The position numbers and the translations under genes are program-made. Positions 17,179 through 43,580 of a DNA stretch of 53,288 bases are shown piece after piece (within the stretch, counting starts at the first letter, position 1; each line of letters starts with the position of its first letter). The stretch spans positions 1 to 53,288 of the IMG/VR virus record IMGVR_UViG_3300037507_002397; one strand, written 5' to 3'. The notes under the pieces are model-generated. The model saw only the letters and a list, made by a program, of their open reading frames with translations, was not told where the DNA came from and did no database searches. Source of the DNA: a virus. Its lineage: Duplodnaviria; Caudoviricetes.

Positions 17179-17182
17179 GGTT

Positions 17183-18250
17183 TTAGTTTTTGTTGCCCCC
17201 CGCAACTTCCCCACGCTCAAGAGCCGCGCGCAACCGGGACTCGAAGGACTCGCTGAAGAGTTCGTCGTAGCTCTTGGGTTGCGTATGGCACTCGGCGTGT
17301 TGGTCGAGCGTGGCGGAAGGGGCTTCTGGCACGCTCGACCTGTTCTTATTGACTGCCTGCGAGGCGAGCTTGCGGCGCATGATCTTGACGCTCTTTTCCA
17401 GCGCCTCAATCTTTTGCGTTTGCAAGCGCACCTCGGCGAGCAGTTCTGATTTCATCTCACCAAAGAGCGCGGCAACATCCAGAGTGGTGGGATGCTGCGC
17501 GACTTCCTCTGTCTTGTCTTCCTTCGGCAGTTCGGGCACAACGATCTGCGTCTTAGCCGGCAGACCGAGCGCATCGAACAGCCGCGAAACTGTCTTTTCG
17601 CTCACCGCGCCAGACTGCGCGAAGCTCTTAGCCGCGCTCATCAGCGCATTAGGGTTGGCAGGAATGGAGCACTGGGAGAGCTCGATCTGCTCCTGCTTTT
17701 CGTAAAGGACACCATACGCACCAAGCCCCGCGGCTTCGCGCTTCTCCGGCGTGTCCGGGTAGCTGGACTTCGTAGGAATGAATCCGACCGAGACGGCCTT
17801 GATGAAGCCGCCGTCCACCAGTCGATAGATCAGGTCGGCTTCGGGGTTCATCTCCGCAGTCGCGTACTCGATGGACTCGAAGAGCGCCGGCGTGTTGTCG
17901 CGCTTCGCGCCCTTCTCAAAGTCGAACACGCGGCCGATGGGCAGCGAGGATGCATCGTGGCCCCACAGCGCAACCGGGTTCTTCTTGAAGTTTTTGAAGT
18001 CCCAGCCGCTCACGCGAATGATGTCGCCGGCCCTATCGGCGGTCTCGTCGCTGGCGATAAAGCGGAAGCTGCGGCCACGCTCGCCCTTCTCAGGATCGTT
18101 TATAGCGGCGGTGCGCCAGTGCGGCACACTGTCACGCTTGATTGCGATGACGTTCTCAATCTTCTCGGCTGCAAGTTCTTCTACGCTGGCGATGCCGCGC
18201 AAGATCCGCTCGGAGAGTTCCTTCAGGTTATTTGTGATGATCTCGGTCAT
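17183..18250 (-). CDS. HK97-family prohead protease with C-terminal coiled-coil/scaffold-like tail
   Basis: ASDET.DR.GDII, NPVALWGHD, AVSVGFIP and ELS....PANPNA motifs. Confidence 0.93.
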   Translation of the reverse strand: MTEIITNNLKELSERILRGIASVEELAAEKIENVIAIKRDSVPHWRTAAINDPEKGERGRSFRFIASDETADRAGDIIRVSGWDFKNFKKNPVALWGHDASSLPIGRVFDFEKGAKRDNTPALFESIEYATAEMNPEADLIYRLVDGGFIKAVSVGFIPTKSSYPDTPEKREAAGLGAYGVLYEKQEQIELSQCSIPANPNALMSAAKSFAQSGAVSEKTVSRLFDALGLPAKTQIVVPELPKEDKTEEVAQHPTTLDVAALFGEMKSELLAEVRLQTQKIEALEKSVKIMRRKLASQAVNKNRSSVPEAPSATLDQHAECHTQPKSYDELFSESFESRLRAALERGEVAGGNKN

Positions 18251-29991: not shown

Positions 29992-30386
29992 CGCCGCGCT
30001 CCATTCGTGCGCCGGATCTCTCCTAGTTTTTCTTCGACGGCAAGACACTGCGCGAGTCGCTCACGATTGACGGCCGCGCGCCGTTGCTGGATCCAGTTTT
30101 CGTAGGTTGCCTCGCCGCCGAAGCACGCGCCGGGCGCGTGATCCCAGAGGAACGCGAGCAGCAGCCGAACGCTTGCAAGTCCGTCGAGTCCCATCGTTTC
30201 GACGCAAGCTGACAAATCGTTCCGCAGGATGGCACGCACGCATGGGTGGCTGGGCTCGATGCCGTTGGCAATGTACTCCAAGACCTGCTGCCTCCAGTCG
30301 GCATCTGCATCGCTGTACGGCTCGGCCTCGATCAGCGAGCGCACGCGCAGGAAGTCAACCGATCGGCCTTTGTCGAAATTATTCAC
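29988..30386 (-). CDS. Hypothetical early protein
   Basis: Coupled ORF (AILRNDL...AP.ACFGG...W). Confidence 0.7.
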   Translation of the reverse strand: MNNFDKGRSVDFLRVRSLIEAEPYSDADADWRQQVLEYIANGIEPSHPCVRAILRNDLSACVETMGLDGLASVRLLLAFLWDHAPGACFGGEATYENWIQQRRAAVNRERLAQCLAVEEKLGEIRRTNGARR

Positions 30387-30763
30387 GACGCGGCCTCCAT
30401 CTTGTAGCGGAGGAGCTCGACTCCGGGCCAGCCGTGCATCGGGATGCCGCGCGAGTCGAGGCCGAGCAGATCATTTCGCAAGTCGCGCGCATCGACGATG
30501 TAAGTTGCGTGCATGTCGTAGGCGAGCCAGCGGAGGATGTCGACCGAGTCTAGGATATCGGGGCCGTCGACGTGTTTAGTCGGCGAATTTTGATCTGCGG
30601 AGGCCATACTTTGTGCGAGCATGACCAGCTCATGCTGGTCGGCAGCCGGGAGGATGTAGGCCGGGCCGCTGTGCGGCGTCAGGACGACGAGCACCGGATA
30701 TTGCAGGCCGCTAATATCGACCGGGCGGCTACGTCGAGAGTGTGTGTTGTGAATTGTGATCAT
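30383..30763 (-). CDS. Hypothetical early protein, directly downstream of the hammerhead ribozyme
   Basis: ATG preceded by AGAAAGACAC-N5. Confidence 0.7.
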   Translation of the reverse strand: MITIHNTHSRRSRPVDISGLQYPVLVVLTPHSGPAYILPAADQHELVMLAQSMASADQNSPTKHVDGPDILDSVDILRWLAYDMHATYIVDARDLRNDLLGLDSRGIPMHGWPGVELLRYKMEAAS

Positions 30764-30785
30764 GGCTTGTGTCTTTCTCTGGTTT

Positions 30786-30839
30786 CCCGTTTCGGCCGTC
30801 CGTCGGCCTCATCAGCGGCGCGGGTCAGCGCCGGACGGG
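30786..30839 (-). ncRNA. Type III hammerhead ribozyme
   Basis: Minus strand reads CCCGUC^CGGCGC-UGACCC-GCGCCG-CUGAUGA-GGCCG-ACGGA-CGGCC-GAAA-CGGG: complete core, GUC triplet and three fully paired stems; predicted cut between 30834 and 30833. Confidence 0.93.
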
Positions 30840-30855
30840 GCGGCCCGAAGGCCGC
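30840..30855 (-). other. C(UUCG)G tetraloop hairpin immediately 5' of the ribozyme
   Basis: GCGGCC-TTCG-GGCCGC on minus, no U-tract. Confidence 0.7.
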
Positions 30856-30861
30856 TAGGCT

Positions 30862-31143
30862 TTATGCTGCGTGGATCTCGGCTGCGGTCTGGATCATCTC
30901 GCGGACGGCTGCGGTCTTGTATGCGGCGAGCGATTCGCTAACGCTTCTGAATTTGCGGCCCATACCCCGCCAAGCCTTCCAGCTAGAGTTTTTGACCACG
31001 ACTCGCACTTCGTTTTGCCAGCTTTCGGGGCCAGAAGAGATCTGCACATACGCGGAGTGATTGCCGCAGGCCAGATCCGCGTAGAGGATGCGGCGGCCTT
31101 CTTCGGGGGTCTGGGTGATCGTGTGGATAATCTGGACTTGCAT
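30862..31143 (-). CDS. Hypothetical early protein, first gene of the leftward operon
   Basis: ATG preceded by AGAAAGACGC-N5; downstream of TATAAT. Confidence 0.75.
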   Translation of the reverse strand: MQVQIIHTITQTPEEGRRILYADLACGNHSAYVQISSGPESWQNEVRVVVKNSSWKAWRGMGRKFRSVSESLAAYKTAAVREMIQTAAEIHAA

Positions 31144-31424
31144 GGCTCGCGTCTTTCTGTCTGGGTTTGTCTCGGCCGCCCTGCGCGGCCTGTCCCCTAT
31201 TATACGCGGACCCGAGCATGGGGTATACCCGGAAAATGCTTTTCCCCGTCACCTTTTCCCTAAGTGTGGGAAAACGAAGGACTTGCGCTGTTCTGTCCCT
31301 GAAATGGGAAGGGGGTGGGCGAATTTTCCCGGAATCCCTCTAGCCTTTTCCCGGGACTGCCGTAGTATGGGTAGACCGCAGCGCGAGGTGCGCCGCGGGC
31401 AACCCCAAAAGAAAGACACGACAG
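31144..31424. promoter_or_regulatory. Divergent early promoter region
   Basis: Leftward -10 TATAAT (31199-31204, minus); rightward TAGCCT-N16-TAGTAT (31341-31368); GGGTATACCC palindrome; several TTTTCCC/GGGAAAA boxes; GC hairpins at both predicted 5' ends. Confidence 0.7.
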
Positions 31425-31706
31425 ATGAACACGAACACGCTCACCCTCCCCAGAATCAGCCTCGGCGGGACTAACGGCGACGACCTGCTGGAAAGCTACG
31501 GCGTGGCCTATCGTGCGGCGCTTGAGGCCCTTGGCAAGCTGGCGCAAAACGCCTGCCCCAACGGGCGCGACTATGCGTCATGGGACGACTTCCTGGCGGC
31601 AAAGGAACAGCACGAAGAGCGCATGAAGCGCATCGAGTCCGTTGTTCTTGAGCTGGACCAAATCCGCGATTCGATCTGCACCCAAACCTTGGAGCGCAAG
31701 CTGTGA
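31425..31706 (+). CDS. Hypothetical early protein, first gene of the rightward operon
   Basis: ATG preceded by AGAAAGACAC-N5; PNGRDY motif. Confidence 0.8.
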   Translation: MNTNTLTLPRISLGGTNGDDLLESYGVAYRAALEALGKLAQNACPNGRDYASWDDFLAAKEQHEERMKRIESVVLELDQIRDSICTQTLERKL

Positions 31707-31772
31707 CCGCCGATCAAACCCCCTGCGTCTGAAATTTCCCAACCCCAACCTCACGAAAGAAAGACACGAACC

Positions 31773-32228
31773 ATGAAACTCTCTTCCGCCACTATCCGTA
31801 CTCTGACCCTGCACCGCGCGGCGGACAGCAACCAGCCGTGCAAGGCCCAGATCGCCGGCATCCTCGCCGAGCCGACGGCCGACCTGCTCGCGCAGTCCCC
31901 GGATGCGATCCTACACCTCGGGATACTCGCGCATCTTGCATCAGCTCAGGATCATCACGACGCGGAGGACATCTACGCCGACTTCCGGGCTGCTTGCTCG
32001 ACCTGCTTCGCCGACCTGCGCGTCACGCTGGAGGATGCGGAGGACGGCCCCGACCTGAGCGACTACAGCGGCAGCGCGCTGGATCTGCTGGTCGACAACG
32101 GCTATGACCTTGAGGTCCTCGAGGCCGTTGTCGAGATTCGCACCGAGCGGACTCGCGCAGTACGCATCGGTGGCGGTGCTGGTGCGGCCTACATTCTGCG
32201 CGGCGCCGGCGCGGAGGTGCGGTCGTGA
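31773..32228 (+). CDS. Hypothetical acidic early protein
   Basis: ATG preceded by AGAAAGACAC-N5. Confidence 0.75.
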   Translation: MKLSSATIRTLTLHRAADSNQPCKAQIAGILAEPTADLLAQSPDAILHLGILAHLASAQDHHDAEDIYADFRAACSTCFADLRVTLEDAEDGPDLSDYSGSALDLLVDNGYDLEVLEAVVEIRTERTRAVRIGGGAGAAYILRGAGAEVRS

Positions 32229-32629
32229 TCCGCTCCATCCTCGCTCTAGCCTTGCTCGCGGCTCCGGTCATCGCCGGCGAAAAGGAGATGCGCCGCTTCC
32301 TCGATGCGATCCGCCGAGTCGAGACTGGAGGGCTACCCGCCGCCGGCGTCGGCGCGGTCGGAGACAAGGGCGCGAGCATCGGCCCCTACCAAATCCAGCG
32401 CGCCTACTGGCTGGACTCGCGCATCCCCGGCGAGTACCGATCCTGCCTGACGGACGCCGCATACTCCGAGCGCGTGATGCGTGCCTACTGGGCGCGCTAC
32501 TGCCCGGATGCGCTGCGGTCCGAAAATTGGGAAGTTCTCGCGCGCGTCCACAATGGCGGGCCAAAAGGTGCGAAGAAAACCGCGACTGTGAAGTACTGGG
32601 ACAAAGTGAAAAAGGAGATGAGCAAGTGA
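32225..32629 (+). CDS. Secreted i-type (destabilase-like) lysozyme
   Basis: Signal peptide MIRSILALALLAAPVIA; FLDAIRRVETGG, GPYQIQRAYWLD, ARVHNGGPKG and T.KYWDKV motifs. Confidence 0.85.
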   Translation: MIRSILALALLAAPVIAGEKEMRRFLDAIRRVETGGLPAAGVGAVGDKGASIGPYQIQRAYWLDSRIPGEYRSCLTDAAYSERVMRAYWARYCPDALRSENWEVLARVHNGGPKGAKKTATVKYWDKVKKEMSK

Positions 32630-33408
32630 ACCTAGAGAAAAGGCTGGAAGAGTCCGACATCAAGGGTCTGGTGGTCGAGTCGATCTACCTTGACGGCGGC
32701 GGTGTCGTGCGCATCAATGGAAAAATCCGCATCGAGGCTGTGGGCGATTGCTGCTCTCGCGGATGGATCGAGTATCTGAAGCACCCGCCGTTGCCGTTCA
32801 CGATCCTTTCGGGCCGTGGAGACTTTGGAGACGAATGGGTCACTGACCATAGCGACCCTGGACACCGCGCAGGATGCGATGTGCTCACGGTGTACCGCGC
32901 ATCGTACCCCACAGACCGCGACGATCTTTCCATGACCGTCCTGAACGATTCCAACGGGTACTACGGATCGCAGGTTGAGTGGATCGGGCACGTGGAAGCC
33001 AGCGATCTGGACAAGCTCGGCATGATGGGGTTTGGAAGCCACGAGATGTCCAGTCATGTGGCTAAGCATGGCTCGCTCGCTGGCGCATGGAACGACCTGC
33101 GACCTCAGTGGATCATCGGTCTGTGCGCGGCCATGAAGTACCGGGTTGGCGAGCACGATTCCGCATGGGATATCGCGCATCCTGGCTCTCCTGTGGACCA
33201 GACCGCCAAAATGCTGTCCGCAATCATGAAGCACGAGCGCTACATAACTGGGCGAACCGTGACCGAAACCCTGATCGGAGAGGCGATGAACATCACCCGC
33301 CAGCGGATCGACGCTTGGCTTCTTGACTACCGAGCAAGTCGCCTCGCATGGTGTGTGGCGAACAAGTCCAAGATCCTGGAAGCATTTGCCAAATGGGGGC
33401 ACCAATGA
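32626..33408 (+). CDS. Hypothetical protein with DCCS...SNGYYG motifs (start GTG 32626)
   Basis: GTGA overlap with the lysozyme stop; the upstream extension of ORF 32104 overlaps real genes. Confidence 0.7.
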   Translation: MNLEKRLEESDIKGLVVESIYLDGGGVVRINGKIRIEAVGDCCSRGWIEYLKHPPLPFTILSGRGDFGDEWVTDHSDPGHRAGCDVLTVYRASYPTDRDDLSMTVLNDSNGYYGSQVEWIGHVEASDLDKLGMMGFGSHEMSSHVAKHGSLAGAWNDLRPQWIIGLCAAMKYRVGEHDSAWDIAHPGSPVDQTAKMLSAIMKHERYITGRTVTETLIGEAMNITRQRIDAWLLDYRASRLAWCVANKSKILEAFAKWGHQ

Positions 33409-34382
33409 CACTCAAAACCCTGACCCGCGATGACTGGCTTTATCTCCGCCGGCACTCCATCGGAGCAAGCGAGGCCGCTGCTGCTTGCGGCGAGTCGCCC
33501 TACCTGTCCGAACTCGAACTGTATGCGCGCAAGCTGGGCATGATGCCTGACCCGGATCTAGGCTCGATCGAACACGTCCGATGGGGCAATCTGCTGGAAC
33601 CGGCCATCGTCGAGGAGACCTGCCGGCGGCTGGATCTGCGACCGCTTGGCATCGAGGAGTCTGCCGAGCGGCTCGGCGGATCCCCCGATGTCGAGATCGT
33701 TGGCGCACTGGAAGGGCGGCAGCTTTTCCTGCGCTCGATTCCACACCCGTACATGACCGCGACTCTCGACGGAATCGCGATCGACGGTGACGGCGCGCTG
33801 GTGAGCATCGAGGCGAAGAATACGAGCGCATGGCGGCTCGAGGACTGGCAGGACGGCGGCTCTCCGGGGCACTACCAGATTCAAGTCGTGCACCAGCTTG
33901 CGGTCGCCGCGCCGATCTCGCGCGGGATCCTCGCCGGACTTGTGGGCGGGAACGCGCTCAAGATCGCGCCGGCAATGCGCCGGGAGGATGCGCCCATTGC
34001 GGCCCTTATCGAGGTCGAGCGTGCATTTTGGAAGCGCGTGCAGTCCGCACAGCCGCCAAAGGCCGACGGGTCGGCGAGCAGCGCGAGTGCGCTCAAGGCA
34101 CTACACCCGGATGACAACGGCGAGAGCATCACGCTGCCGCTGGAGATGATCGCGCTGCACGAGGAGCTGTCCCAACTTGAGGACGAGGCCAAGCAACGAT
34201 CAAAAAAGATCGAGTCGCTGCGCGTCTTGCTCCGAGAGGCACTAGGATCCAACACCTACGGCATTCTGCCCAACGGGCAGGGCCGCTACAGCTACAAAAC
34301 GCAGACACGGGTAGAGCGCACCCAGCCGGCGTCGAAGTCCCGCGTGCTCAGGTTTTCAAAGGCAAAAGGAAAGACACAATGA
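33405..34382 (+). CDS. YqaJ/lambda-exonuclease-family recombination nuclease
   Basis: WL..RR.SIGASE, WGNLLEP, ATLDG, IEAKNT and Y.IQV.HQL motifs. Confidence 0.93.
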   Translation: MTLKTLTRDDWLYLRRHSIGASEAAAACGESPYLSELELYARKLGMMPDPDLGSIEHVRWGNLLEPAIVEETCRRLDLRPLGIEESAERLGGSPDVEIVGALEGRQLFLRSIPHPYMTATLDGIAIDGDGALVSIEAKNTSAWRLEDWQDGGSPGHYQIQVVHQLAVAAPISRGILAGLVGGNALKIAPAMRREDAPIAALIEVERAFWKRVQSAQPPKADGSASSASALKALHPDDNGESITLPLEMIALHEELSQLEDEAKQRSKKIESLRVLLREALGSNTYGILPNGQGRYSYKTQTRVERTQPASKSRVLRFSKAKGKTQ

Positions 34383-35296
34383 CAAACACAATCACCACCC
34401 AACCCACTCAGTCCGTGCAGCGCGCAGCGCCGCGAACCGTAGCCGACATGCTGACCGGAGATCAGCGGCTCTTGCAGTCAATGGCGAATGCGCTTCCACG
34501 GCACATTCCGTCTGACCGCTTCGCGCGCGTCTGCCTGACCGCACTTCGGCGCACTCCCAAGTTGCAGCAGACGAAGCCGGAAAGTCTGCTCGCGGCCCTG
34601 ATGACTTGCGCGCAGCTTGGACTCGAGCCGAACGACCCGCGGCAGCTTGCCTACCTGATCCCCTACGGTCAGGAGTGCCAGCTCATCATCGGCTGGCGTG
34701 GATACATCGAGCTGGCGATGCGTTCCGGGATGGTCAGCAACATCCAGGCACAGGTCGTGTATGAGCGCGATGGCTTCGAATACGAGCAGGGTCTGGAATT
34801 GAAACTCAAGCACACGCCCTACCTTGGCAGCGATCCCCGCGGCAAGGTCATCGCCAGCTACGCCGTCGCCACGATGTCGAACGGTCACAAGGCATTCGTC
34901 GTGCTGCCGCGCTGCGATATCGAGCGCGCACGCGCGGCGAGCAGCGGCGTGAAGTCCGGCCGCGCGACTCCTTGGGATGATTGGTTCCCGGAGATGGCGA
35001 TGAAGACCGCGGTGCGCCGGTTGGCGAAATTCATGCCGCAAAGCCCGGAGTTCGCGCGCGCGCTCGAGGCCGATGATGCCAAGGGCTTGACGATCGACCC
35101 GGTAACGATGTCTCCGGAGAGCATCGAGATCGAACCGGCGATGAGTCTCGCCGAGGTGGCGGATGAGGGCGAGCCTACACCGACAAGTCAGGCGCAGGCT
35201 CAAGACCTGGGCGCACGCTTGGAGCAAAAGGCCGCGACGGTTGCCACGCCCGCCAAGGGGCAAAGCCGCTTCGCGGATGAAGGCGGTGCGGAGTGA
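34379..35296 (+). CDS. recT: RecT-family single-strand annealing protein
   Basis: AQLGLEP....AYLIPY...CQLIIGWRG.IELA.RSG; PW...FPEMA.KT.VRRL.K.MP. Confidence 0.95.
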   Translation: MTNTITTQPTQSVQRAAPRTVADMLTGDQRLLQSMANALPRHIPSDRFARVCLTALRRTPKLQQTKPESLLAALMTCAQLGLEPNDPRQLAYLIPYGQECQLIIGWRGYIELAMRSGMVSNIQAQVVYERDGFEYEQGLELKLKHTPYLGSDPRGKVIASYAVATMSNGHKAFVVLPRCDIERARAASSGVKSGRATPWDDWFPEMAMKTAVRRLAKFMPQSPEFARALEADDAKGLTIDPVTMSPESIEIEPAMSLAEVADEGEPTPTSQAQAQDLGARLEQKAATVATPAKGQSRFADEGGAE

Positions 35297-35538
35297 GTTC
35301 TAAAATTGAAGCGGCTGATGTTCTCATTGTTGTCCGCATGACAGCCGAGGTGGCGCAGACCCACCAAACGCTATACCAGCTTGACGCGCTGCTGAATTGT
35401 ATTGGCGACGATGGCGCAAACCGCGCAGAGATCAAAGCTCTGCATGATGCGCTTGACGAGCGATTCTCAAGGCTTCTCAGATCGTATGAGCGTCTGGTTT
35501 ACAAGTACACGGAATCCACCGAAGGTGGTGCAGAGTGA
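35293..35538 (+). CDS. Hypothetical protein
   Basis: Coupled ORF. Confidence 0.6.
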   Translation: MSSKIEAADVLIVVRMTAEVAQTHQTLYQLDALLNCIGDDGANRAEIKALHDALDERFSRLLRSYERLVYKYTESTEGGAE

Positions 35539-37052
35539 GCCAGACTATCGAGATCAAAGACGCTGGCCCGATCGAATCGCTCACCATCCCCGTTCCCGAA
35601 GGCGGCGGCGTGGTCGTGCTGCGCGGTCCCAACGGCGGCGGCAAGTCCACGGCGCTCAACGCTGTGACGGCGCTGGTGTCTGGCGCTGGAACGGTGCCCA
35701 CTCGTGACGGTGCCCTGGGCGCCATCGTCGAGGGACTGGGCGCACGCTTGACGGTTGGTCGGCGCACTGGGCGCAGCGGCGAGCTTGAGCTTCACCACTT
35801 GGAAGGCCCGGATCCCTCGCTACTCGTCGACCCCGGCATCAAGGATCGCGGTGCGGCCCACGCGGAGCGCATTCGTGCGCTTGCGCGGCTGGCTAACGCC
35901 ACGCTGGACCGGGAGCGGATCGTGTCGCTTGTCGGTGGGCCTGATGCCTTCGCGGCGCTGGTGCGCGCTGAGTCGCTGGAGAAGGGCGATGTGCCGTCAA
36001 TCTGCGCGGCGGTGAAGCGTGACCTCGAAACTGCGGCGCGTGCGGCTGAAACCGAAGCCGACAACCTGCAAACCGAGGCTCGCGGGATCTCTGCATCGGT
36101 CGATGCGGTGCCCGAGGCTGAGATGCTGGACGAGGCCGCGCTCCAGCAAGAGCTCGAACTGGCGTCCGGCCAACTTGGCGAACTGCGCGGGCGGCAATCG
36201 CAAGCCGACAAGCTGCGCGCCGCTGCTGAGGCTGCCCGGCAAACGCTGGCAGGCATGGGTGAGCGTGGCACTGTCGACGCTGGCCGTGCAGCCGAAGCGC
36301 AACTGGCGCAAGCTGAAGCCGCCACCAAGGCGATGCGCGGCGCACTGGAAGCCAAGAGCGAAGCGGTGCAAGCCGCTAAGGTTGCGCTAGCTAAGGCGAT
36401 CGCCGAGGCCGACCTGGCTAACGCGGCGGTGCAGACCGCGCTCGCGCAGGAGGATATGGCGCGGGCTACCTTGCTCCAGGCCGAGAAGGACTACAAAGCC
36501 CGGAACCAGCTTGGCGCGGCGATGAAAGCCGCCGATGCAGCCGCGTTTGTGGACCCGTCCGAAGTTACGGCCTGGGAAGAGCGGCAGACCGCCGCACGGC
36601 TCGCGCTCCAGCGTGCCGAGGTCGTGCGCTTTGCGATGGACCAGCGCGAACGCGCCAAGGTCAAGTCTGACGAAAGCGGCGCGGCTCGCTCTCGCGCTCT
36701 TGGTTTGCGCCGTGCCGCGAGCGGCTGCGAGGCGATCATCAGCGAAGCCCTGGCGAAAGTCTGCCCCGCTGGGATGTTGGTTCACGAGGGAATGCTGGTC
36801 GTGAAAACCGATCGCGGGCTCGAACCCTTCGACGAGCTTAGCCACGGCGAACGCTGGCGCTGGGCTATCGAGATTGCAGCGCGCACGGTGAAGGCGCCGG
36901 GCTTGCTGGTGTGCCGTCAGGAAGGCTGGGAATCGTTGCAGCCCTCCGTGCAGCGTGAAGTTGACGCGATGGCCCGCGAGCATGGGCTGGTGATCTTGGC
37001 GGCGAAGGCCGACGATGGAGAGTTGCGCGCTGAGGTGTTTGGAGGCGCGTGA
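35535..37052 (+). CDS. Rad50/SMC-like ABC ATPase with long coiled coil
   Basis: Walker A GPNGGGKST, Ala-rich coiled coil, signature LSHGE, variant Walker B LLVCRQE. Confidence 0.85.
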   Translation: MSQTIEIKDAGPIESLTIPVPEGGGVVVLRGPNGGGKSTALNAVTALVSGAGTVPTRDGALGAIVEGLGARLTVGRRTGRSGELELHHLEGPDPSLLVDPGIKDRGAAHAERIRALARLANATLDRERIVSLVGGPDAFAALVRAESLEKGDVPSICAAVKRDLETAARAAETEADNLQTEARGISASVDAVPEAEMLDEAALQQELELASGQLGELRGRQSQADKLRAAAEAARQTLAGMGERGTVDAGRAAEAQLAQAEAATKAMRGALEAKSEAVQAAKVALAKAIAEADLANAAVQTALAQEDMARATLLQAEKDYKARNQLGAAMKAADAAAFVDPSEVTAWEERQTAARLALQRAEVVRFAMDQRERAKVKSDESGAARSRALGLRRAASGCEAIISEALAKVCPAGMLVHEGMLVVKTDRGLEPFDELSHGERWRWAIEIAARTVKAPGLLVCRQEGWESLQPSVQREVDAMAREHGLVILAAKADDGELRAEVFGGA

Positions 37053-37387
37053 TGTTCGACCAGATCAAGCTGCCCGTGTGCCCGGTGTGTGGGGCGTGGT
37101 GCGTGTCGGCTGTGAGTCAAAAAGCCTTAGGTATGGGCTTTGATGTGTCCTTTAGTTGCGGGTCTAAGTTTTCGGTCAACCAAGACCGCGAGCCGCTGAT
37201 TGTTGATGGCTGCAAAGATGCGGAGGAGGTGGTGCAGATGCTCAAGTCTCAAGCAAAATTCCTCCGCGCTGAACTTGCCCGCCTTCAAGCTGACCCCGAC
37301 ATTCGCGCCTTGGACGCCGCCCGCCAGCGCCACGCCGAGGTCCGCGCCCATGTCGCGCAGGTGCAGGAGCAAACCGAGATCGCGTGA
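37049..37387 (+). CDS. Hypothetical Cys-containing protein
   Basis: CPVC...FSCGS...C; coupled. Confidence 0.65.
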   Translation: MMFDQIKLPVCPVCGAWCVSAVSQKALGMGFDVSFSCGSKFSVNQDREPLIVDGCKDAEEVVQMLKSQAKFLRAELARLQADPDIRALDAARQRHAEVRAHVAQVQEQTEIA

Positions 37388-37489
37388 TCTCGACCGGCCG
37401 CGCGCAGTAGTAAAGAGCGGGCTGCGCGCGGCTGGATTTTTCAAAGGGAAAAACAATGGAAACTCAAAACAGATGGAAGAGGTGACGCC

Positions 37490-37948
37490 GTGACCAAGCT
37501 CTACAGGATGAAGCCGCTGGTGTGGGTTGATAACTTCTATCCCCCCTCCTGTGATGGCCCTTGCGGGTTTAGGATCATAATCGACGAAGATATACGGGAC
37601 TCGGGCACCCTATACACCCTATACCGTGGTGACGATTTCTGCGCAGATTCCTTTTCGCTAGGTGAAGCCAAAGCCGCCGCCGAAAAGCTCGCGCTGGAAG
37701 AAGCCCTGCGCTGGGTGGAAGAAGTGACCCCAGAAGCCCCTCGCTGGATTCCTGTTGGCGAGCGGATGCCGCCGGATGATCCGTATTACCAAAACCGCAG
37801 CGCGAAAGTCCTTGTGCATCTATCGACGGGGACGGTTTGTGTTTCTTGGTTTTTCAGACCAACAGAAGCGTGGGTGGGGATTGACTACTCCAAGGAGCGC
37901 GTCACCCACTGGATGCCGCTCCCAGAACCGCCGAAAGGAGGCGCGTGA
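37490..37948 (+). CDS. DUF551-domain protein
   Basis: WIPVGERMP...VTHWMPLPEPP. Confidence 0.85.
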   Translation: MTKLYRMKPLVWVDNFYPPSCDGPCGFRIIIDEDIRDSGTLYTLYRGDDFCADSFSLGEAKAAAEKLALEEALRWVEEVTPEAPRWIPVGERMPPDDPYYQNRSAKVLVHLSTGTVCVSWFFRPTEAWVGIDYSKERVTHWMPLPEPPKGGA

Positions 37949-38280
37949 TGTGGACCGAGAGTAAGCGCGCCCAAGAAGTTACAGACCTAATCGAGTCTGC
38001 GCCCCTTCCGATTCTAGTAAAGGGTGGTGCCATTACGCGCATGTGGTGCGAGGTTGTTATGTGGACGCTGCATGTAAACGCTAGGGTCCGCGTGTGGACT
38101 GGCGAAGAGCTGCATACGCGCGTGGGTGTTTCAACGGATTTCCTGGAACGCCATGCGTCCGCTGAATCCGCACTTACACCCGTTCGGCTTAGGATGGTTG
38201 CAGACATTGAGGAAGCCATCGAGCACCGCTACACCAATTGGATAGGTGAACAGATCAGAAAGGTCGAGAAAATCAAATGA
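37945..38280 (+). CDS. Hypothetical protein
   Basis: AAAGGAGG RBS; coupled. Confidence 0.65.
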   Translation: MMWTESKRAQEVTDLIESAPLPILVKGGAITRMWCEVVMWTLHVNARVRVWTGEELHTRVGVSTDFLERHASAESALTPVRLRMVADIEEAIEHRYTNWIGEQIRKVEKIK

Positions 38281-38489
38281 GTAATAATGAAAAATCCATG
38301 CCGTCCCAACGTAAGCCCCAATCTGCCTTTACGCGGCGCACCGGCTACATCTTTGTGATGGTCGCTGGCTGCGGCATCGCGGCAGTAGCGGGTCCAATGG
38401 ACTCGTGGCTGACGAATGCTCTGCTCTTCGCGGTGCTTGTCCAGGCCGAGCGGATCGTGGACCGCATGGACAAGAGGGGTGGCGCGTGA
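38277..38489 (+). CDS. Small putative membrane protein
   Basis: Two hydrophobic stretches; coupled. Confidence 0.55.
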   Translation: MSNNEKSMPSQRKPQSAFTRRTGYIFVMVAGCGIAAVAGPMDSWLTNALLFAVLVQAERIVDRMDKRGGA

Positions 38490-38920
38490 GCACGTTTGAC
38501 TTTCAGGACGGCAACGGTCCCGTCGCTGCTCACCAACACCCCAACGGTGGCGGGTGGGTAGCCAGCACAGCGTCTGTGGCACCTACGGCGTATGTAGGTC
38601 CGTACGCTCAGGTGTACGGCAACGCTCGGGTGTTCGGTAGCGCTCAGGTGTACGGCAACGCTCGGGTGTTCGGTAGCGCTCGGGTGTACGGCAGCGCTAG
38701 GGTGTTTGGCGAGGCTCAGGTGTTTGGCGACGCTCTGGTGTCCGGCAACGCTCGGGTGTACGACACCGCTCAGGTGTACGACACCGCTTGGGTGTCCGAC
38801 ACCGCTTGGGTGTCCGACACCGCTCGGGTGTACGGCAACGCTCGGGTGTACGGCAACGCTCTGGTGTCCGGCAACGCTCGGGTGTCTGGCGAGGCTCGGG
38901 TGACGGGAGACGCACGATGA
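38486..38920 (+). CDS. Left-handed beta-helix (hexapeptide-repeat) protein (start GTG 38486)
   Basis: H.HPNGGGWVA.TA.V...AYVGP followed by AxVxG/Dx repeats. Confidence 0.85.
   Translation: MSTFDFQDGNGPVAAHQHPNGGGWVASTASVAPTAYVGPYAQVYGNARVFGSAQVYGNARVFGSARVYGSARVFGEAQVFGDALVSGNARVYDTAQVYDTAWVSDTAWVSDTARVYGNARVYGNALVSGNARVSGEARVTGDAR
38606..38911 (+). repeat. 18-bp coding tandem repeat, 17 units
   Basis: Units such as GCTCGGGTGTACGGCAAC encode the hexapeptides. Confidence 0.9.
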
Positions 38921-39204
38921 GTTCCACGCCGGATCTTGACCGCGCGCTCAAAATCGCCCGTGCAGCGGGTATGGGGTCGGCCGCTTGGGATCGAGCGTGC
39001 GACGAGCTTCGCGCCATGCGAGAGCTACTCAGCGGCCAGACGCTTTACGATGCCCGGCAAGCGACCCTCATGGAGATAGCCAGCTACTGCGAGCAGCAGG
39101 CTCAGGATCGGCCCGCAGACTCTGCCGCGCTTCATGCCGTGGCTGCCGAGTGCTTCCGCCGGCATTCCCACGCTGCCGCGCGGGCGAAGACCAGCGGGGC
39201 ATAA
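38917..39204 (+). CDS. Hypothetical protein (start ATG 38917)
   Basis: ATGA overlap with the previous stop. Confidence 0.6.
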   Translation: MSSTPDLDRALKIARAAGMGSAAWDRACDELRAMRELLSGQTLYDARQATLMEIASYCEQQAQDRPADSAALHAVAAECFRRHSHAAARAKTSGA

Positions 39205-39236
39205 TCGGCAAGCCGGGCGAAGGGGCCGGCGCGTCG

Positions 39237-39491
39237 ATGACAAAAAGCAAGAGGGCCGAGGCGATCAACCTCGAGGACTGGGTACGCGCAAACCAAAAGC
39301 GCAAGTGCCTCATATGCCGCACGGAGGGGGCATCAGATCTTGTCGAGTCCGTGTTGACCGCGAGCAAAAAGCTGGGGCTGACAGTCCCGCAAAGTAAGCT
39401 ATGCGACTTGCTGCGCGAGCGCGGCGTGCTGGAAACAACCAGCCACACGATGCGCGACCACATCAGGAGATGCCGTGGCAAAGCGCGATAA
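39237..39491 (+). CDS. Small CxxC...HxxxC Zn-finger/HTH-like protein
   Basis: CLIC...HTMRDHIRRC; precedes the phosphoesterase. Confidence 0.6.
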   Translation: MTKSKRAEAINLEDWVRANQKRKCLICRTEGASDLVESVLTASKKLGLTVPQSKLCDLLRERGVLETTSHTMRDHIRRCRGKAR

Positions 39492-40536
39492 GCCCTTCGA
39501 CGCGGAAGCATTTGCGAGACAAGCATCCCGCGAGTCGATCATCGGCGAGATCAAGCGCGCGATCTACCGCTCGAGCAGTTCGGTGCGCGAACTTGCGCGG
39601 CGCTGCGACTGCTCCGAGGATCTTGTCCGCGAGCTGCTGCATGAGATGATCCAAGCCGGCATTGCGATCCACCGCAGCGGCGACTGGTTATGGATCGAGC
39701 CGGGACATGTTCCGCCCGTCCTTCCCAACGAGGGGCACGCATGGAAGGGCGAGACCTATCGCTTCGGACTCATCAGCGATACGCACTACGGCAGCAAGTA
39801 CGCGAGGGAGGATGTCTGCCACTCTCTGTATGACTGGTTCAAGTCCGAGGGCATCGAGCGCGTGTACCATGCCGGCAACTGGGTGGAAGGCATCGCCAAA
39901 TTCAATCGTTTCGATCTGATCCCGCAGGCTCACGGGATGCAAGCCCAGCTTGACTACTTCGCCAAAAACTACCCGGCGCGAAAGGGCATCCGCACTTACA
40001 TCGTCAGCGGCGACGACCACGAAGGCTGGTGGAGTCAGCGCGAAGGCGTGAACATCGGCCAGATGATGCAGGACACCGCGGAACGTCACGGCCGCAAAGA
40101 CTTGATCGACATCGGCTACATGGAGGCATTTGTCACGCTCACGCACGCAAAATCTGGACGCTCATCCAGGATGCTAGTCGCGCATCCGGGCGGCGGGTCG
40201 GCCTATGCAGTGAGCTACACAAGCCAGAAGATCATCGAGAGCTTTCAGCCGGGAGAGAAGCCGGCTGTCGCCATTTTCGGGCACTACCACAAGATCGAGT
40301 ACCTGCTAACGCGCGGCGTTCATGCGATCCAGGCCGGATGCACCAAGGATCTTGACCCGTTCGGACGCAAAAAGCGGCTGGCATACCACATCGGCGGCGC
40401 GATCATCGAGCTGCGCCAGTCCCCGGATGGATCGATTCCCGATTGCCTGACCTGGTTCCGTCAGTTCAGCGACCGCGGCCAGCACAATGACCAGTTCGCC
40501 CACAGCCACGAACCGACGAGGACGCGCGCGCGATGA
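39475..40536 (+). CDS. Calcineurin-like metallophosphoesterase with N-terminal winged HTH
   Basis: SDTHYGS, HAGNWVEG, SGDDHE, AHPGGG and GHYHK motifs; N-terminal SVRELARRCDCS. Confidence 0.88.
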   Translation: MAKRDKPFDAEAFARQASRESIIGEIKRAIYRSSSSVRELARRCDCSEDLVRELLHEMIQAGIAIHRSGDWLWIEPGHVPPVLPNEGHAWKGETYRFGLISDTHYGSKYAREDVCHSLYDWFKSEGIERVYHAGNWVEGIAKFNRFDLIPQAHGMQAQLDYFAKNYPARKGIRTYIVSGDDHEGWWSQREGVNIGQMMQDTAERHGRKDLIDIGYMEAFVTLTHAKSGRSSRMLVAHPGGGSAYAVSYTSQKIIESFQPGEKPAVAIFGHYHKIEYLLTRGVHAIQAGCTKDLDPFGRKKRLAYHIGGAIIELRQSPDGSIPDCLTWFRQFSDRGQHNDQFAHSHEPTRTRAR

Positions 40537-40847
40537 ATCCCAAAAGGAAACTTCACGGTAAGGTCCCATACGTTCGCTTCGGATCGGTCAAGCTGCCCGT
40601 CTATCTAACCGAAGATCACGAACAGCACGGCTACTATGACTCTTGGCCGGAGCAGGCAATCCACGTCGCTAGGCAAGAGGAGTCAAGCGAGATCCGAACC
40701 ATCCTTCATGAGTCGATCCATGCAGCCGCGGATCTGTACGGGATCGAGCTTTCGGAGGCGAAGGTACGCATCCTCGAGAACGCCATCGGGCAGCTCATCT
40801 GCCAGAACCCAAAACTGATACAGCTCCTCCAGAAATACGGACGCTGA
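40533..40847 (+). CDS. Small HExxH zincin-like metallopeptidase
   Basis: TILHESIHA...E motif. Confidence 0.75.
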   Translation: MNPKRKLHGKVPYVRFGSVKLPVYLTEDHEQHGYYDSWPEQAIHVARQEESSEIRTILHESIHAAADLYGIELSEAKVRILENAIGQLICQNPKLIQLLQKYGR

Positions 40848-40884
40848 CACGCGAACACGCCGGCAGCCGTGATAAGGTTCGCTT

Positions 40885-40997
40885 GGGTTGGTCCACCGCC
40901 GACCAGCGCAGTTCAAAGGGTGTAAGCAGCCAGTGGATCTGCGACGAGCCGGGAGCAGTCTGTGTCTTTCTGTTTCGGCCAGGCGGCGGACTTTTTT
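40885..40997 (+). ncRNA. Candidate structured small RNA carrying antisense to the early-gene RBS motif
   Basis: Extended -10-like TGATAAGGT (40870-40878); closing stem GTCCACCGCC/GGCGGCGGAC followed by T6; two internal hairpins; contains TGTGTCTTTCTGT (40961-40973). Confidence 0.55.
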
Positions 40998-41017
40998 AGC
41001 CAAAGCGAGGAGCTTGC

Positions 41018-41311
41018 ATGAGAATCAACGAACGGATGATCGCCATCGACGCACTGCACCCGCTTAGGGTGCGGGTCTGGATTGCGTGCGACTGTGACTT
41101 CCTGCCGACCGAAGATGAGGCTAGAGAGACCCTGAAGCCCGTCATTCTCAAGGCCATGCGTGACTGCGTGACAGATCCGCGAGCGGTGGCCGAGCGCATC
41201 GCTGAGTACGATCGCAGAGTGAGCAGCGGACTTTCTGGCCCATTCGTCAACGCCGTCGAAGTTATTCGACCCGACGGAAACGGCGTGCTCATTTACCCGG
41301 ACTGGCCGTGA
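41018..41311 (+). CDS. Hypothetical protein
   Basis: GAGGAG RBS. Confidence 0.7.
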   Translation: MRINERMIAIDALHPLRVRVWIACDCDFLPTEDEARETLKPVILKAMRDCVTDPRAVAERIAEYDRRVSSGLSGPFVNAVEVIRPDGNGVLIYPDWP

Positions 41312-41553
41312 AGCTCAAGACAAAGCACGACGGCAAGTGCGACGCGCATGGATGCCGGGCTGTCTGGGAAGTCTTTAGCGGACCGGATGGGATGCTCGTG
41401 CGCCGATTCTCTCGGTCTGTGCGGTTTTGCCTGAAGCATGTCTCGGAAGCCAACGAAATCTACGAGACCGATGGCCGCAGGATCGGAGGATATCGGCATC
41501 CCATCAAGCCTGACGCGGACAAAGACGAGAGCGACAATGCGGACGCATTGTGA
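41308..41553 (+). CDS. Hypothetical protein
   Basis: Coupled ORF with Cys/His residues. Confidence 0.6.
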   Translation: MKLKTKHDGKCDAHGCRAVWEVFSGPDGMLVRRFSRSVRFCLKHVSEANEIYETDGRRIGGYRHPIKPDADKDESDNADAL

Positions 41554-41661
41554 CACACGGGGGAGCGGTGCGCGCCACGAGCCGTCCTGTGTAGCGAGAG
41601 TGATAGCGTGTCTTTCTGCTGCCGCGCGGCCCGGCAGGATCGGGCGAAGGCCGCACTATCC

Positions 41662-41907
41662 ATGACACGCCGCTGCCCGCATTGTCGCGGAAATCTTCCG
41701 GCGCTGACGGCGGATGATTGTCTGGACCTCGATGCGACGGAGCGCGCGCGGCTGACCGAACTCCTCCAGCCTAAACGCAATAGGACGCGATCTGCCGAGC
41801 CTGGCGAGCAGGACGAAGCCAAGCTCAAGCGCGAAGCCAAGAGCGGCGCTGTGCGCGTGGATGAGAGCGGCAAGGTACGATTCCAGGGTCCAACCGCCAG
41901 AGAATAG
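41662..41907 (+). CDS. Hypothetical CxxC protein (start ATG 41662)
   Basis: MTRRCPHC; last plus-strand gene before the convergence point. Confidence 0.55.
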   Translation: MTRRCPHCRGNLPALTADDCLDLDATERARLTELLQPKRNRTRSAEPGEQDEAKLKREAKSGAVRVDESGKVRFQGPTARE

Positions 41908-41909
41908 AA

Positions 41910-41938
41910 CAGGCCGGAGTGACGCGCACCCCGGCCTG
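41910..41938. terminator. Hairpin at the convergence of early and late arms
   Basis: CAGGCCGG...CCGGCCTG. Confidence 0.6.
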
Positions 41939-42045
41939 CCTTCTCTACACTCCCATCTTCACGGGCAGCCTATCATAAATAGGGCCGCGGGCGATCATCG
42001 ACCTCGCAAAAGGCTCAAAGCTCGGCCGATCACCTCCCGCGGCTG

Positions 42046-42315
42046 TTACAGGGGGAACTTAGGCTTTCCCTTTTTCGGCGTCGGCTTGGTCTGGTCGACG
42101 TGGATCTCGTAGTCACTTGAGCGAATCAGCTTTGCCGTCTGCATCGCCTTTGACTCGCTTGAGTATGCCTCAGAAACGGCCAGGATCTGACCGTTAGCCG
42201 CACGGAGTCGCCAGCGCCAATATCCGCTGGCATCTTCGAAGAGCTCGACCGAGATAACCTTAGATGGACGACGATCCACAAGATATTTCCACCACGAAAC
42301 AAGCCAAGAAAACAT
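42046..42315 (-). CDS. YegP/DUF1508-family protein (start ATG 42315)
   Basis: ELFEDASGYWRWRLRAANGQILAVSEAYSS. Confidence 0.85.
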   Translation of the reverse strand: MFSWLVSWWKYLVDRRPSKVISVELFEDASGYWRWRLRAANGQILAVSEAYSSESKAMQTAKLIRSSDYEIHVDQTKPTPKKGKPKFPL

Positions 42316-43019
42316 CACAGCGTCTCGTAGACAAAGCGGACTTTGAGGCTCAGGGCGCGCTCGCCGTTTAGGCTCGTGTGCGTCTGGAACCGCTTGAAGT
42401 AATGGCCAGGCGCGTTCCATTCGCTGAAGAACCCTTGAGCCGTAAGCATCGCCGCCACCGGAACAAGGCCCGATCCGTTGATTCCACCGTAATACATCGA
42501 GGGAATGTAGCTCGGGCCGTAGATTTTCTCTTGCGCCCACTCGCCGATCTGGTTGCCAGTCGTATGCCCGCTCAAACCGGCCCCGTCAACTTGACCGTCA
42601 AATGCTGAGAGAGGTTGACCTCCGCACATTCCAAGCCAAGCGCCGATGCCTCCGCACATTTCGCCTGCGGCGGACACATAGGTGATGGACCCGTAGGTGC
42701 CTTGATAGCCGGCGAGCGGCGTGTTGCCAAGCTGTTCGACGGAGTAGCGGAAGGGCGTATTCAAGCCGAACTGGAAGGTCGTTCCGTAGTTGGCTGCGAT
42801 CTGTACGCGCACTCCCACCAAGGTCCCCATGGAGGAGTCATACGCCGGCAGCGCCGCGCGATACACCTTGCGGGCGCCGTCTGAGTTGAAAGCCTCAATG
42901 ATCTCGTTCTCTGGCAGCATCTCGACCCAGTTGGTCGTGATCTGATTCTGAGCCTGAGTCACGAAGGACAGGAATGCGACCGCAAGCGTGCGGCAAGCCA
43001 ATTGAAAAAGCTGTTTCAT
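42315..43019 (-). CDS. Secreted choice-of-anchor E-like domain protein
   Basis: Signal peptide ending AQA-like (TQA); LPAYDSSMGTLVGV, LSAFDGQVDGAGLSG and terminal LKVRFVYE. Confidence 0.7.
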   Translation of the reverse strand: MKQLFQLACRTLAVAFLSFVTQAQNQITTNWVEMLPENEIIEAFNSDGARKVYRAALPAYDSSMGTLVGVRVQIAANYGTTFQFGLNTPFRYSVEQLGNTPLAGYQGTYGSITYVSAAGEMCGGIGAWLGMCGGQPLSAFDGQVDGAGLSGHTTGNQIGEWAQEKIYGPSYIPSMYYGGINGSGLVPVAAMLTAQGFFSEWNAPGHYFKRFQTHTSLNGERALSLKVRFVYETL

Positions 43020-43031
43020 TTCTTGATGATC

Positions 43032-43580
43032 CTATTTCTTGAGTGTGCCAAACAGCAAGGCCATCGCGCGCTGTAGATCGAGGAGCGAACAAGTTGCAGA
43101 CTGACCGTTTGGCATAGTCAGAAGCACGCCGTTCGAGACTCTCTCGAACAGTATTCCGCAGATGGTTACAGGACCACCGAGCTTTCCTGGGCCGCCTGCT
43201 GTTTCTTTAGGTGTAGGCTCTGGGATTTCTTTTTCACGCATTCGCTGAATCCTCCGAGCCTTTTTGTGCGAGTCTTTTCTATCTATGGCCGCAAAGTCGT
43301 CGTGAATGAGACCTAGTGAATCATCCAAGCAGTCAACCTTCGGTCTACCACCATGCTTGCCATGCAGCGCGCGTATATAGTCGATGCAAGCGTTTCGCGC
43401 TTTGACAAACAGGTATCCGTGCAAGTCCATTCCGCCGTCGCGGAAAGAAAGCAGCGCGAGCAAGATTGCCATGCGCGCTTCCTGCTGAAGGTCTTCCAAC
43501 GGCTCGACATTTCCGACGCGCTTGGAGACGCTTGCCGCAGCGCGGCAGGCGATGTTCTCCAGCTCGTCAGAGCTAATCAC
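43032..43580 (-). CDS. Sigma-70-family protein (region 2 clear, region 4 not evident)
   Basis: EDLQQEARMAILLAL.SF......GYL...ARNACIDYIR. Confidence 0.78.
   Translation of the reverse strand: MISSDELENIACRAAASVSKRVGNVEPLEDLQQEARMAILLALLSFRDGGMDLHGYLFVKARNACIDYIRALHGKHGGRPKVDCLDDSLGLIHDDFAAIDRKDSHKKARRIQRMREKEIPEPTPKETAGGPGKLGGPVTICGILFERVSNGVLLTMPNGQSATCSLLDLQRAMALLFGTLKK

Follow-up and report, generated by a model that had tools for sequence, protein, structure and literature searches.

The window analysed here, the whole 53,288-bp stretch of the IMG/VR virus record IMGVR_UViG_3300037507_002397, carries a short motif directly in front of five early genes and, in the intergenic gap 40848-41017 of its rightward operon, a three-way-junction RNA-like element that presents the complement of this motif on the apical loop of one arm. 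Our preferred reading, to which we assign a probability of roughly 0.4, is that the gap gives rise to a structured plus-strand RNA whose variable arm bears a seed complementary to the ribosome-binding site (RBS) region of the five leaders, pairs with them and most likely represses them.

The motif was searched with the pattern RGAAAGACRCR, itself built with R at positions 1, 9 and 11, and matches seven times on the two strands of the window, against 0.21 matches expected (mean of 100 dinucleotide shuffles, none of which reaches seven). All seven sites, which occur in both orientations, lie within 30.7-41.6 kb, the non-structural region, and five of them stand on the coding strand 0-4 nt before an ATG (4 nt at four sites, 0 nt at 34368). 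The start-associated motif family that an earlier note on this DNA had recognized is therefore real. The five start-associated copies fall in the early region at 30.7-34.4 kb:

30768..30778, minus strand: motif 4 nt before the ATG of the open reading frame (ORF) 30383..30763, directly after a probable hammerhead
31148..31158, minus strand: motif 4 nt before the ATG of ORF 30862..31143, with a 5' GC hairpin and a TATAAT-like box (31199-31204) upstream in the leader
31410..31420, plus strand: motif 4 nt before the ATG of ORF 31425..31706, with a 5' GC hairpin and TAGTAT (31363-31368) upstream in the leader
31758..31768, plus strand: motif 4 nt before the ATG of ORF 31773..32228
34368..34378, plus strand: motif variant GGAAAGACACA, immediately followed by the ATG of the RecT-like gene (34379..35296) and lying within the 3' end of the RecE-like gene

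The promoters at 31148 and 31410 are putative, being called from sequence alone. The leaders differ from one another only by A/G exchanges at motif positions 1, 9 and 11, each facing a U of the plus-strand copy in the gap, a pattern that the earlier note had described correctly. With up to two mismatches allowed, no further start-associated variant was found in the window. Other genes of the phage have AGAAAGG or GGAG at the same position, and the AGAAAG part of the motif consequently looks like a Shine-Dalgarno (SD) variant; an SD role does not account for the conserved ACACR extension. Three of the five leaders (30768, 31148 and 31410) share a common order, namely a stable 5' structure, approximately 10-15 A/C-rich bases, the motif, 4 nt and the ATG, the structure being a GC hairpin after a TATAAT/TAGTAT-like box (31148, 31410) or the hammerhead (30768). 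The motif is thus an over-conserved, asymmetric and RBS-positioned motif of the start-associated sequence (SAS) type, co-oriented with a subset of non-structural genes. Since its sequence is unrelated to the published SAS consensus, we consider it an analogue of SAS and not a homologue. Two promoter readings of the motif were rejected: as the -10 element of an extracytoplasmic function (ECF) sigma promoter it would put the transcription start inside or after the ATG, and as a leaderless promoter it would conflict with the different spacing at 34368. The divergent early control region (31187-31420) holds the TATAAT box on the minus strand (31199-31204) and the TAGTAT box on the plus strand (31363-31368), and downstream of each a GC hairpin coincides with the 5' end predicted for the transcript; a two-hexamer promoter scan called nothing in 31187-31420.

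The two remaining matches are reversed with respect to the rightward operon, and the second of them had escaped the earlier note:

40961..40971, read on the plus strand: anti-motif UGUGUCUUUCU, the reverse complement of AGAAAGACACA (the motif lying on the minus strand)
41607..41617, minus strand: second reversed copy AGAAAGACACG, in the 108-nt gap 41554-41661

As had been claimed, the minus-strand motif at 40961-40971 precedes no start codon, with no ATG, GTG or TTG in the following 20 nt, and no minus-strand start codon follows the copy at 41607-41617 either; a small minus-strand ORF at the reversed motifs was rejected on these grounds. Also rejected was a minus-strand hammerhead in gap 40848-41017, where CGAAAC abuts the motif but CUGANGA is missing. 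The second copy is intergenic, because the true start of the listed ORF 41608..41907 is probably ATG 41662, the counterpart of the ORF start at 3470 of L168, the relative introduced below. Both reversed copies sit in the few sizeable gaps of the plus-strand operon. Scaling from the shuffles predicts approximately 0.02 reversed copies for the strand concerned along the 11-kb operon, and two are seen; this is not chance, in line with the earlier view of the reversed copy as more than a coincidental match. The gap 41554-41661 shows no conserved structure (z 0.58) and no clear homology to the gap of L168.

Comparative evidence on the gap comes from profile scans with an alignment (A1) of the 353-aa metallophosphatase of the window and 23 of 120 listed homologues, which yielded 80 viral loci, 80 from metagenomes and 32 from genomes. 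Only two of the loci listed exceed 60% identity, L168 (70%) and L169 (67%), and these two are also the only ones among 272 loci to hold the 104-aa neighbour of the gap. L169 stops short of the gap, and L168 contains two tandem copies of gap-related sequence after its homologue of the 104-aa gene. Folded alone, the window sequence and both L168 copies adopt the same minimum-free-energy architecture, which in the window consists of the following parts:

40890..40992, plus strand: three-way-junction RNA-like element, with P1 (40890-40900/40982-40992), P2 (40907-40943) and P3 (40948-40979)
40948..40979, plus strand: variable arm P3, a hairpin whose apical loop (40959-40969) counts 11 nt
40992..40997, plus strand: T6, directly after the 3' arm of P1

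P1 is a closing stem of 10-11 bp in which GGUCC.CCGCC (40890-40900) pairs with GGCGG.GGACU (40982-40992), and the earlier report of a closing stem followed by T6 is confirmed. P2 is a long interrupted hairpin whose tip, GG.YG-UAAG-CR.CC, is near-identical between the window and the first L168 copy; ACGAG joins P2 to P3, and CCAG follows P3. Pairing holds in 83.3% of the cells of the three-sequence alignment, compared with 28-48% for slid partners, and nine of the 32 pairs change on both sides, a level reached by only five of 500 shuffles. Because the set comprises three sequences from two lineages and the structure was derived from those same sequences, this covariation amounts to moderate evidence, and it suggests, with moderate strength, that the gap element is a structure conserved through compensatory changes. 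The plus strand is favoured by G-U pairs in P2, in P3 and in P1 of the second L168 copy, the minus strand by one A-C in P1 of the window; in the minus-strand fold P3 does not form. A covariance model of the element (R1) finds one copy in the window. The element has no Rfam match at E<=10 in 40700-41800 or in 40870-41010 (C4, twister, twister-sister, pistol, hatchet and hammerhead included), and the only hit of the L168 homologues is Ms_IGR-8, with 13.7 bits where the gathering score is 44. An outer stem reaching the RBS of ORF 41018, described in the earlier note, appears in the centroid fold and has no counterpart in L168. The cis switch opened by early mRNAs, which that note had built on it, is left without support because the outer pairing toward this RBS is not conserved in the relative.

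Of the 11 bases of the anti-motif, nine lie in the P3 apical loop and two in the 3' arm, as described previously, and in a model of the isolated 111-nt RNA the first nine nucleotides are all unpaired with a probability of 0.85, which agrees in silico with the claim of an accessible seed. When the 15-nt loop was used as the query, the five leaders ranked 1-5 among 71 translation-initiation windows (-18.9 to -15.7 kcal/mol; next window -14.8). The five genes thus come out on top as expected, by construction, since the loop is the complement of the motif, and by a small margin. The predicted complementarity spans 11-15 bp and ends 4 nt (or 0 nt) before the ATG.

Two short boxes lie upstream of the element:

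40852..40860, plus strand: CGAACACGC box, a 9-mer 30 nt before the element
40870..40878, plus strand: extended -10-like TGATAAGGT (TGnTAAGGT), approximately 7-12 nt before P1; weak evidence

By our estimate, a TGnTAnnnT would occur by chance in a 170-nt gap in approximately 10% of cases. The two-hexamer promoter scan returned no sites in 30000-43000; the extended -10-like element of the earlier note is present at 40870-40878 yet neither called by the scanner nor kept in L168. In each L168 copy (at L168:2743 and 2879) the CGAACACGC box immediately precedes P1. The plus strand of the window has it three times (17923, 31432 and 40852); at 31432 it comes right behind the start codon (ATG) of the first gene of the rightward operon. 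The T-run after P1 is T6 in the window, T4 in the second L168 copy and absent from the first. P1 plus T6 is not among the 13 terminator-like sites of the scanner, which passed over it because P1 encloses 81 nt, outside the compact terminator criterion (loop of 3-8 nt). One 154-nt RNA-library contig, given with neither strand nor ends, equals 40898-41051 at 100% identity, and another contig of the same run lies inside a minus-strand ORF. The RNA runs had been chosen for containing the 1.4-kb stretch concerned, small parts of which are contained in two metatranscriptomes (uncovered parts being uninformative), and the overlap of the contig with the element is for this reason not significant.

An independent parallel is provided by the Cluster K mycobacteriophages. 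Their SAS is described as a 13-bp motif located 3-7 bp before the starts of non-structural genes only (PMC3203893), and a similar motif is described in Cluster EF Microbacterium phages (PMC7302621). The section of the Cluster K paper dealing with SAS leaves its partner open as 'RNA or protein' and notes a single reversed site (PMC3203893). The genome of Anaya (Cluster K1) has 17 SAS sites, 16 forward and one reversed, the latter within the 385-nt noncoding gap that separates gp96 from gp97. Read along the transcribed strand, the reversed copy is GCGCGG-CCUCCUAUCC-CCGCGC, a 6-bp stem that is stacked on an 11-bp lower stem and carries the anti-SAS in its 10-nt apical loop (region fold z -5.6). 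A TTGACG-N17-TAGACT box lies upstream of the gap, and the TAGACT and the upstream TTG are invariant in the aligned phages.

L280:34700-35040 (record 59699-60039): structured noncoding region of Anaya, covered by alignment A4, with the anti-SAS in the loop of the third hairpin

Across 12 phages, picked from a spread listing of 150 matching records, 86.6% of cells pair against 34-42% when slid, and 11 of the 40 pairs are compensatory, with a covariation score reached by none of 500 shuffles. Insertions and deletions of 1-2 nt argue against coding and favour a non-coding region; some Cluster K records annotate a hypothetical protein over it. The loop holds the exact anti-SAS in six of the 12 phages, a CU-rich variant in two, and another sequence or a deletion in four. 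Two unrelated phage groups therefore put a lone reversed copy of their start-associated motif in the apical loop of a conserved noncoding hairpin, a placement predicted by an RNA-RNA mechanism and not by a DNA site or a by-product. That phage SAS regulons are controlled by phage-encoded structured RNAs with the anti-SAS in an apical loop, arisen independently in the lake phage and in Cluster K1, is a possibility that we hold with considerable doubt. We found no literature link between 'start associated sequence' and an RNA; a possibly relevant ZoeJ RNA-seq paper fell outside the literature covered.

Under our preferred reading, gap 40848-41017 would be expressed as a structured plus-strand RNA of approximately 105-115 nt, with a three-way junction, a closing stem of 10 bp and a U-run, starting at the extended -10-like box or excised from the rightward operon transcript. 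P1 and P2 would form the conserved scaffold and P3 the variable arm, whose 11-nt apical loop would display the exact complement of the motif (the SD-like core AGAAAG plus ACACR). Loop-to-leader pairing over 11-15 bp, tolerant of G-U, would cover the RBS of the five early mRNAs, and translation of the five early genes would be lowered when transcription reaches the distal part of the rightward operon. The ACACR extension of the pairing would confine the action to a small regulon.

Several observations weigh against this reading. Folded as a whole, the gap has an unexceptional energy (z 0.01 on the plus strand, 0.36 on the minus strand); genome-wide, pairing about as good as that of the leaders is found at several coding-region sites, and three of the five leaders fall outside the top 20 of that scan. 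The -10-like box at 40870-40878 has no counterpart before the L168 copies, the 154-nt RNA contig crosses T6 into ORF 41018, and no conserved loop or comparable structure presents the second reversed copy. Both P3 loops of L168 read GCGUU, without the anti-motif, and their P3 sequence differs from that of the window. The motif core is absent from L168 and L169, and the complement of the L168 loops is found nowhere else on its 5.2-kb contig, which does not include the early control region and hence the early leaders. A scan of viral contigs for the motif plus ATG gave at least 118 matches, mostly random single ones, and a second start-associated copy only in L340, which together with L411 and L412 represents an unrelated phage of 86,728 bp (record G001; terminal repeats, 74% G+C). 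G001 has exactly two AGAAAGACACG copies, at 32864-32874 and 33256-33266 on the minus strand. Both follow immediately on a GC hairpin and leave 3-4 nt to an ATG, and a TTGACA-N17-TACAAC box stands ahead of the first; the proteins of G001 show no similarity to the early genes of the window. Since G001 has the motif before two starts and no reversed copy, the motif can work without an antisense partner. Similarly, the Cluster K loop is replaced or lost in four of the 12 sampled phages, and in Amgine it has drifted to the CU-rich variant with the SAS consensus kept. There is accordingly no seed-target covariation in Amgine, and here too the motif works without the antisense partner, which is dispensable in some of these relatives. 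Of the trans-acting anti-RBS small RNA proposed in the earlier note, the covarying plus-strand fold and the exposed seed have held up; the seed and the promoter-like box are not kept in the relative.

The element could instead serve the rightward operon as an intercistronic processing, stability or attenuation element with no role in pairing, the three-way junction acting as a 5' protective structure or nuclease site, akin to the hairpins and the hammerhead upstream of other genes of this phage, and the anti-motif being a by-product, such as a leader-cassette remnant in inverted orientation. We consider this rather unlikely, although it would fit several features of the gap. An ATG lies 10-24 nt after each copy of the element (41018 in the window, 2863 and 3015 in L168), echoing the order of structure, A/C-rich linker and start at 31148, at 31410 and behind the hammerhead; P3 is the non-conserved arm; the L168 copies lack a conserved promoter and would be part of the operon transcript; and the RNA-library contig reads through T6 into the next ORF. 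An element of this kind leaves unexplained, however, why two reversed 11-mers occur in operon gaps where approximately 0.02 are expected, and why one is placed exactly in an apical loop, both here and in the Cluster K1 phages.

Less probable still, and in our view unlikely, is that the 11-bp motif is a stoperator-like, orientation-independent double-stranded DNA site for a monomeric phage or host protein, its presence at starts reflecting the regulation of short early transcription units. The confinement of the seven sites to 30.7-41.6 kb in both orientations would suit such a site, as would the two copies that flank the divergent early control region and the ECF-like sigma factor and several small unassigned early proteins that the phage encodes. 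Conversely, the fixed 4-nt spacing to the ATG at four of the five sites points to the mRNA level, as does the SD-like AGAAAG core, seen also in the AGAAAGG of other genes. The unrelated G001 has the motif ahead of two starts with the spacing unchanged; nothing about a DNA site would call for placement in a hairpin loop, and the small proteins linked to the motif have no DNA-binding domain in Pfam or PHROGs. Highly improbable, finally, is a plain, strong and unstructured translation-initiation region with coincidental reversed copies. An A/C-rich leader followed by AGAAAGACAC and ATG does occur sporadically in unrelated viral contigs (L331, L307, L340), and AGAAAGG-type SD sequences are common in the window phage, yet none of the 100 shuffles reaches seven sites, a bare SD needs no conserved ACACR, and two reversed gap copies are very unlikely by chance.

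Compared with known systems, the window motif resembles the SAS of Clusters K and EF in being asymmetric, 11-13 bp long and conserved beyond the needs of an RBS, with an SD-like core, and in standing 0-7 bp before the mostly ATG starts of non-structural genes, co-oriented with them and with rare reversed copies. It differs in consensus (AGAAAGACRCR versus GGGATAGGAGCCC and GGGAAAGGACCCC), in having five forward copies only, in belonging to an unrelated, uncultured lake phage with an unrelated host, and in lacking the 17-bp inverted repeat of the 'extended SAS', instead of which GC hairpins or a hammerhead stand upstream. Stoperators, the repressor sites of Cluster A phages, are likewise short asymmetric repeats scattered through the phage genome, but they are untied to starts, in contrast to the fixed ATG spacing of the window motif; the part of the Cluster K paper concerned with SAS names them as a contrast (PMC3203893).

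The closest mechanistic precedent for the proposed RNA is C4 of phage P1, which with C4 of P7 and CI of P4 belongs to the C4 family of Rfam and is encoded in the same operon as its targets, as would be the case in the window. C4 of P1 is described as a structured antisense RNA that blocks downstream genes of its own operon by pairing (PMC8198154). The window element is a different three-way junction, with no Rfam match to C4 or any other family, and where C4 has a single site in cis, it would target five leaders scattered over both strands and linked by a common motif. According to what Citron and Schuster reportedly found in 1990, the complementary sequences of C4 lie in loops and cover the icd RBS. 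Small RNAs of the RNAIII and RsaE/RoxS type use C-rich or CU-rich loops to pair with the SD sequences of several mRNAs and, like the antisense RNAs sar of phage P22 and OOP of lambda, have a terminator-like 3' end. The window element shares with these RNAs a pyrimidine-rich apical loop complementary to RBS regions, and it would likewise serve several targets with one RNA. It differs from the RNAIII and RsaE/RoxS type in that its complementarity runs past the SD into the phage-specific ACACR, and it has no sequence or Rfam similarity to them.

The leader at 30768 is preceded by a further RNA structure:

30784-30841, minus strand: minimal type III hammerhead with GUC, a 6-bp stem I, CUGAUGAG, a 5-bp stem II and CGAAAC

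All core nucleotides (CUGAUGA, GAAA and the GUC triplet) and the three stems are present. On one side the hammerhead is bordered by ORF 30862..31143, with its stop codon and terminator-like hairpin, and on the other by ORF 30383..30763, with its motif and ATG. In a 111-nt search, RF00008 matched it with 36.6 bits (E 5.5e-7), short of the gathering score (48.5), and wider Rfam searches did not pick it up. The hammerhead is probably real. The 'RNA-only timing system' that the earlier note had imagined is speculation, as nothing connects the hammerhead with the gap RNA.

The window has a G+C content of 58.5% and an estimated completeness of 94%. The genes run leftward up to 31143 (structural genes, minus strand), rightward along the non-structural operon, and leftward again beyond it:

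15958-17409, minus strand: HK97-type capsid gene
18255-21071, minus strand: portal gene
among the structural genes, minus strand: tape-measure gene
31144-31424: divergent control region
31425 to approximately 42112, plus strand: rightward non-structural operon, with RecE-like, RecT-like and metallophosphatase genes
43032-43580, minus strand: ECF-like sigma factor (PF04542 region 2, E 1.3e-8), among the leftward genes beyond the operon

The region 42095-42320 (plus strand) folds better than shuffles (z -2.58), and an RNA-library contig covers 42095-42258; it is probably coding, because it lies inside the minus-strand ORF 42046..42540, which is conserved in L168. Many lake-water metagenome runs contain DNA identical to the stretch. 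Megablast found no near relative of the window phage among 50,697 deposited phages. In a profile scan of genome contigs, prophage relatives were scattered over many phyla at <=45% identity, and no host could be assigned. Single-protein scans found no relatives, and a scan with the major capsid protein found one, at 85%, a structural fragment of 5 kb. An exact-pattern scan for the conserved P2 block gave no match in either the viral or the genome contig collection. Neither nhmmer nor R1 found a further copy of the element in approximately 3 Mb of fetched loci (L076-L087 lying outside the R1 search), and distant relatives show no enrichment of the motif.

A phage antisense RNA that blocks ribosome binding is of a known kind; what may be new here is an unclassified three-way-junction scaffold, a motif shared by several genes as the target and a possible link to SAS. 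The window provides a third, unrelated case of an over-conserved start-associated motif, after two actinobacteriophage groups, and with it a named candidate for the SAS partner: a conserved structured RNA with an antisense loop. The parallel in Cluster K brings this idea within reach of a standard laboratory system. If control by such RNAs applies to SAS in general, it would answer a question open since 2011, namely which partner reads SAS. Should the proposed pairing be wrong, the gap would still contain an unclassified, conserved three-way-junction RNA. If it is right, one small RNA would time the whole early-gene set of this phage, and a new structured RNA motif would be defined.

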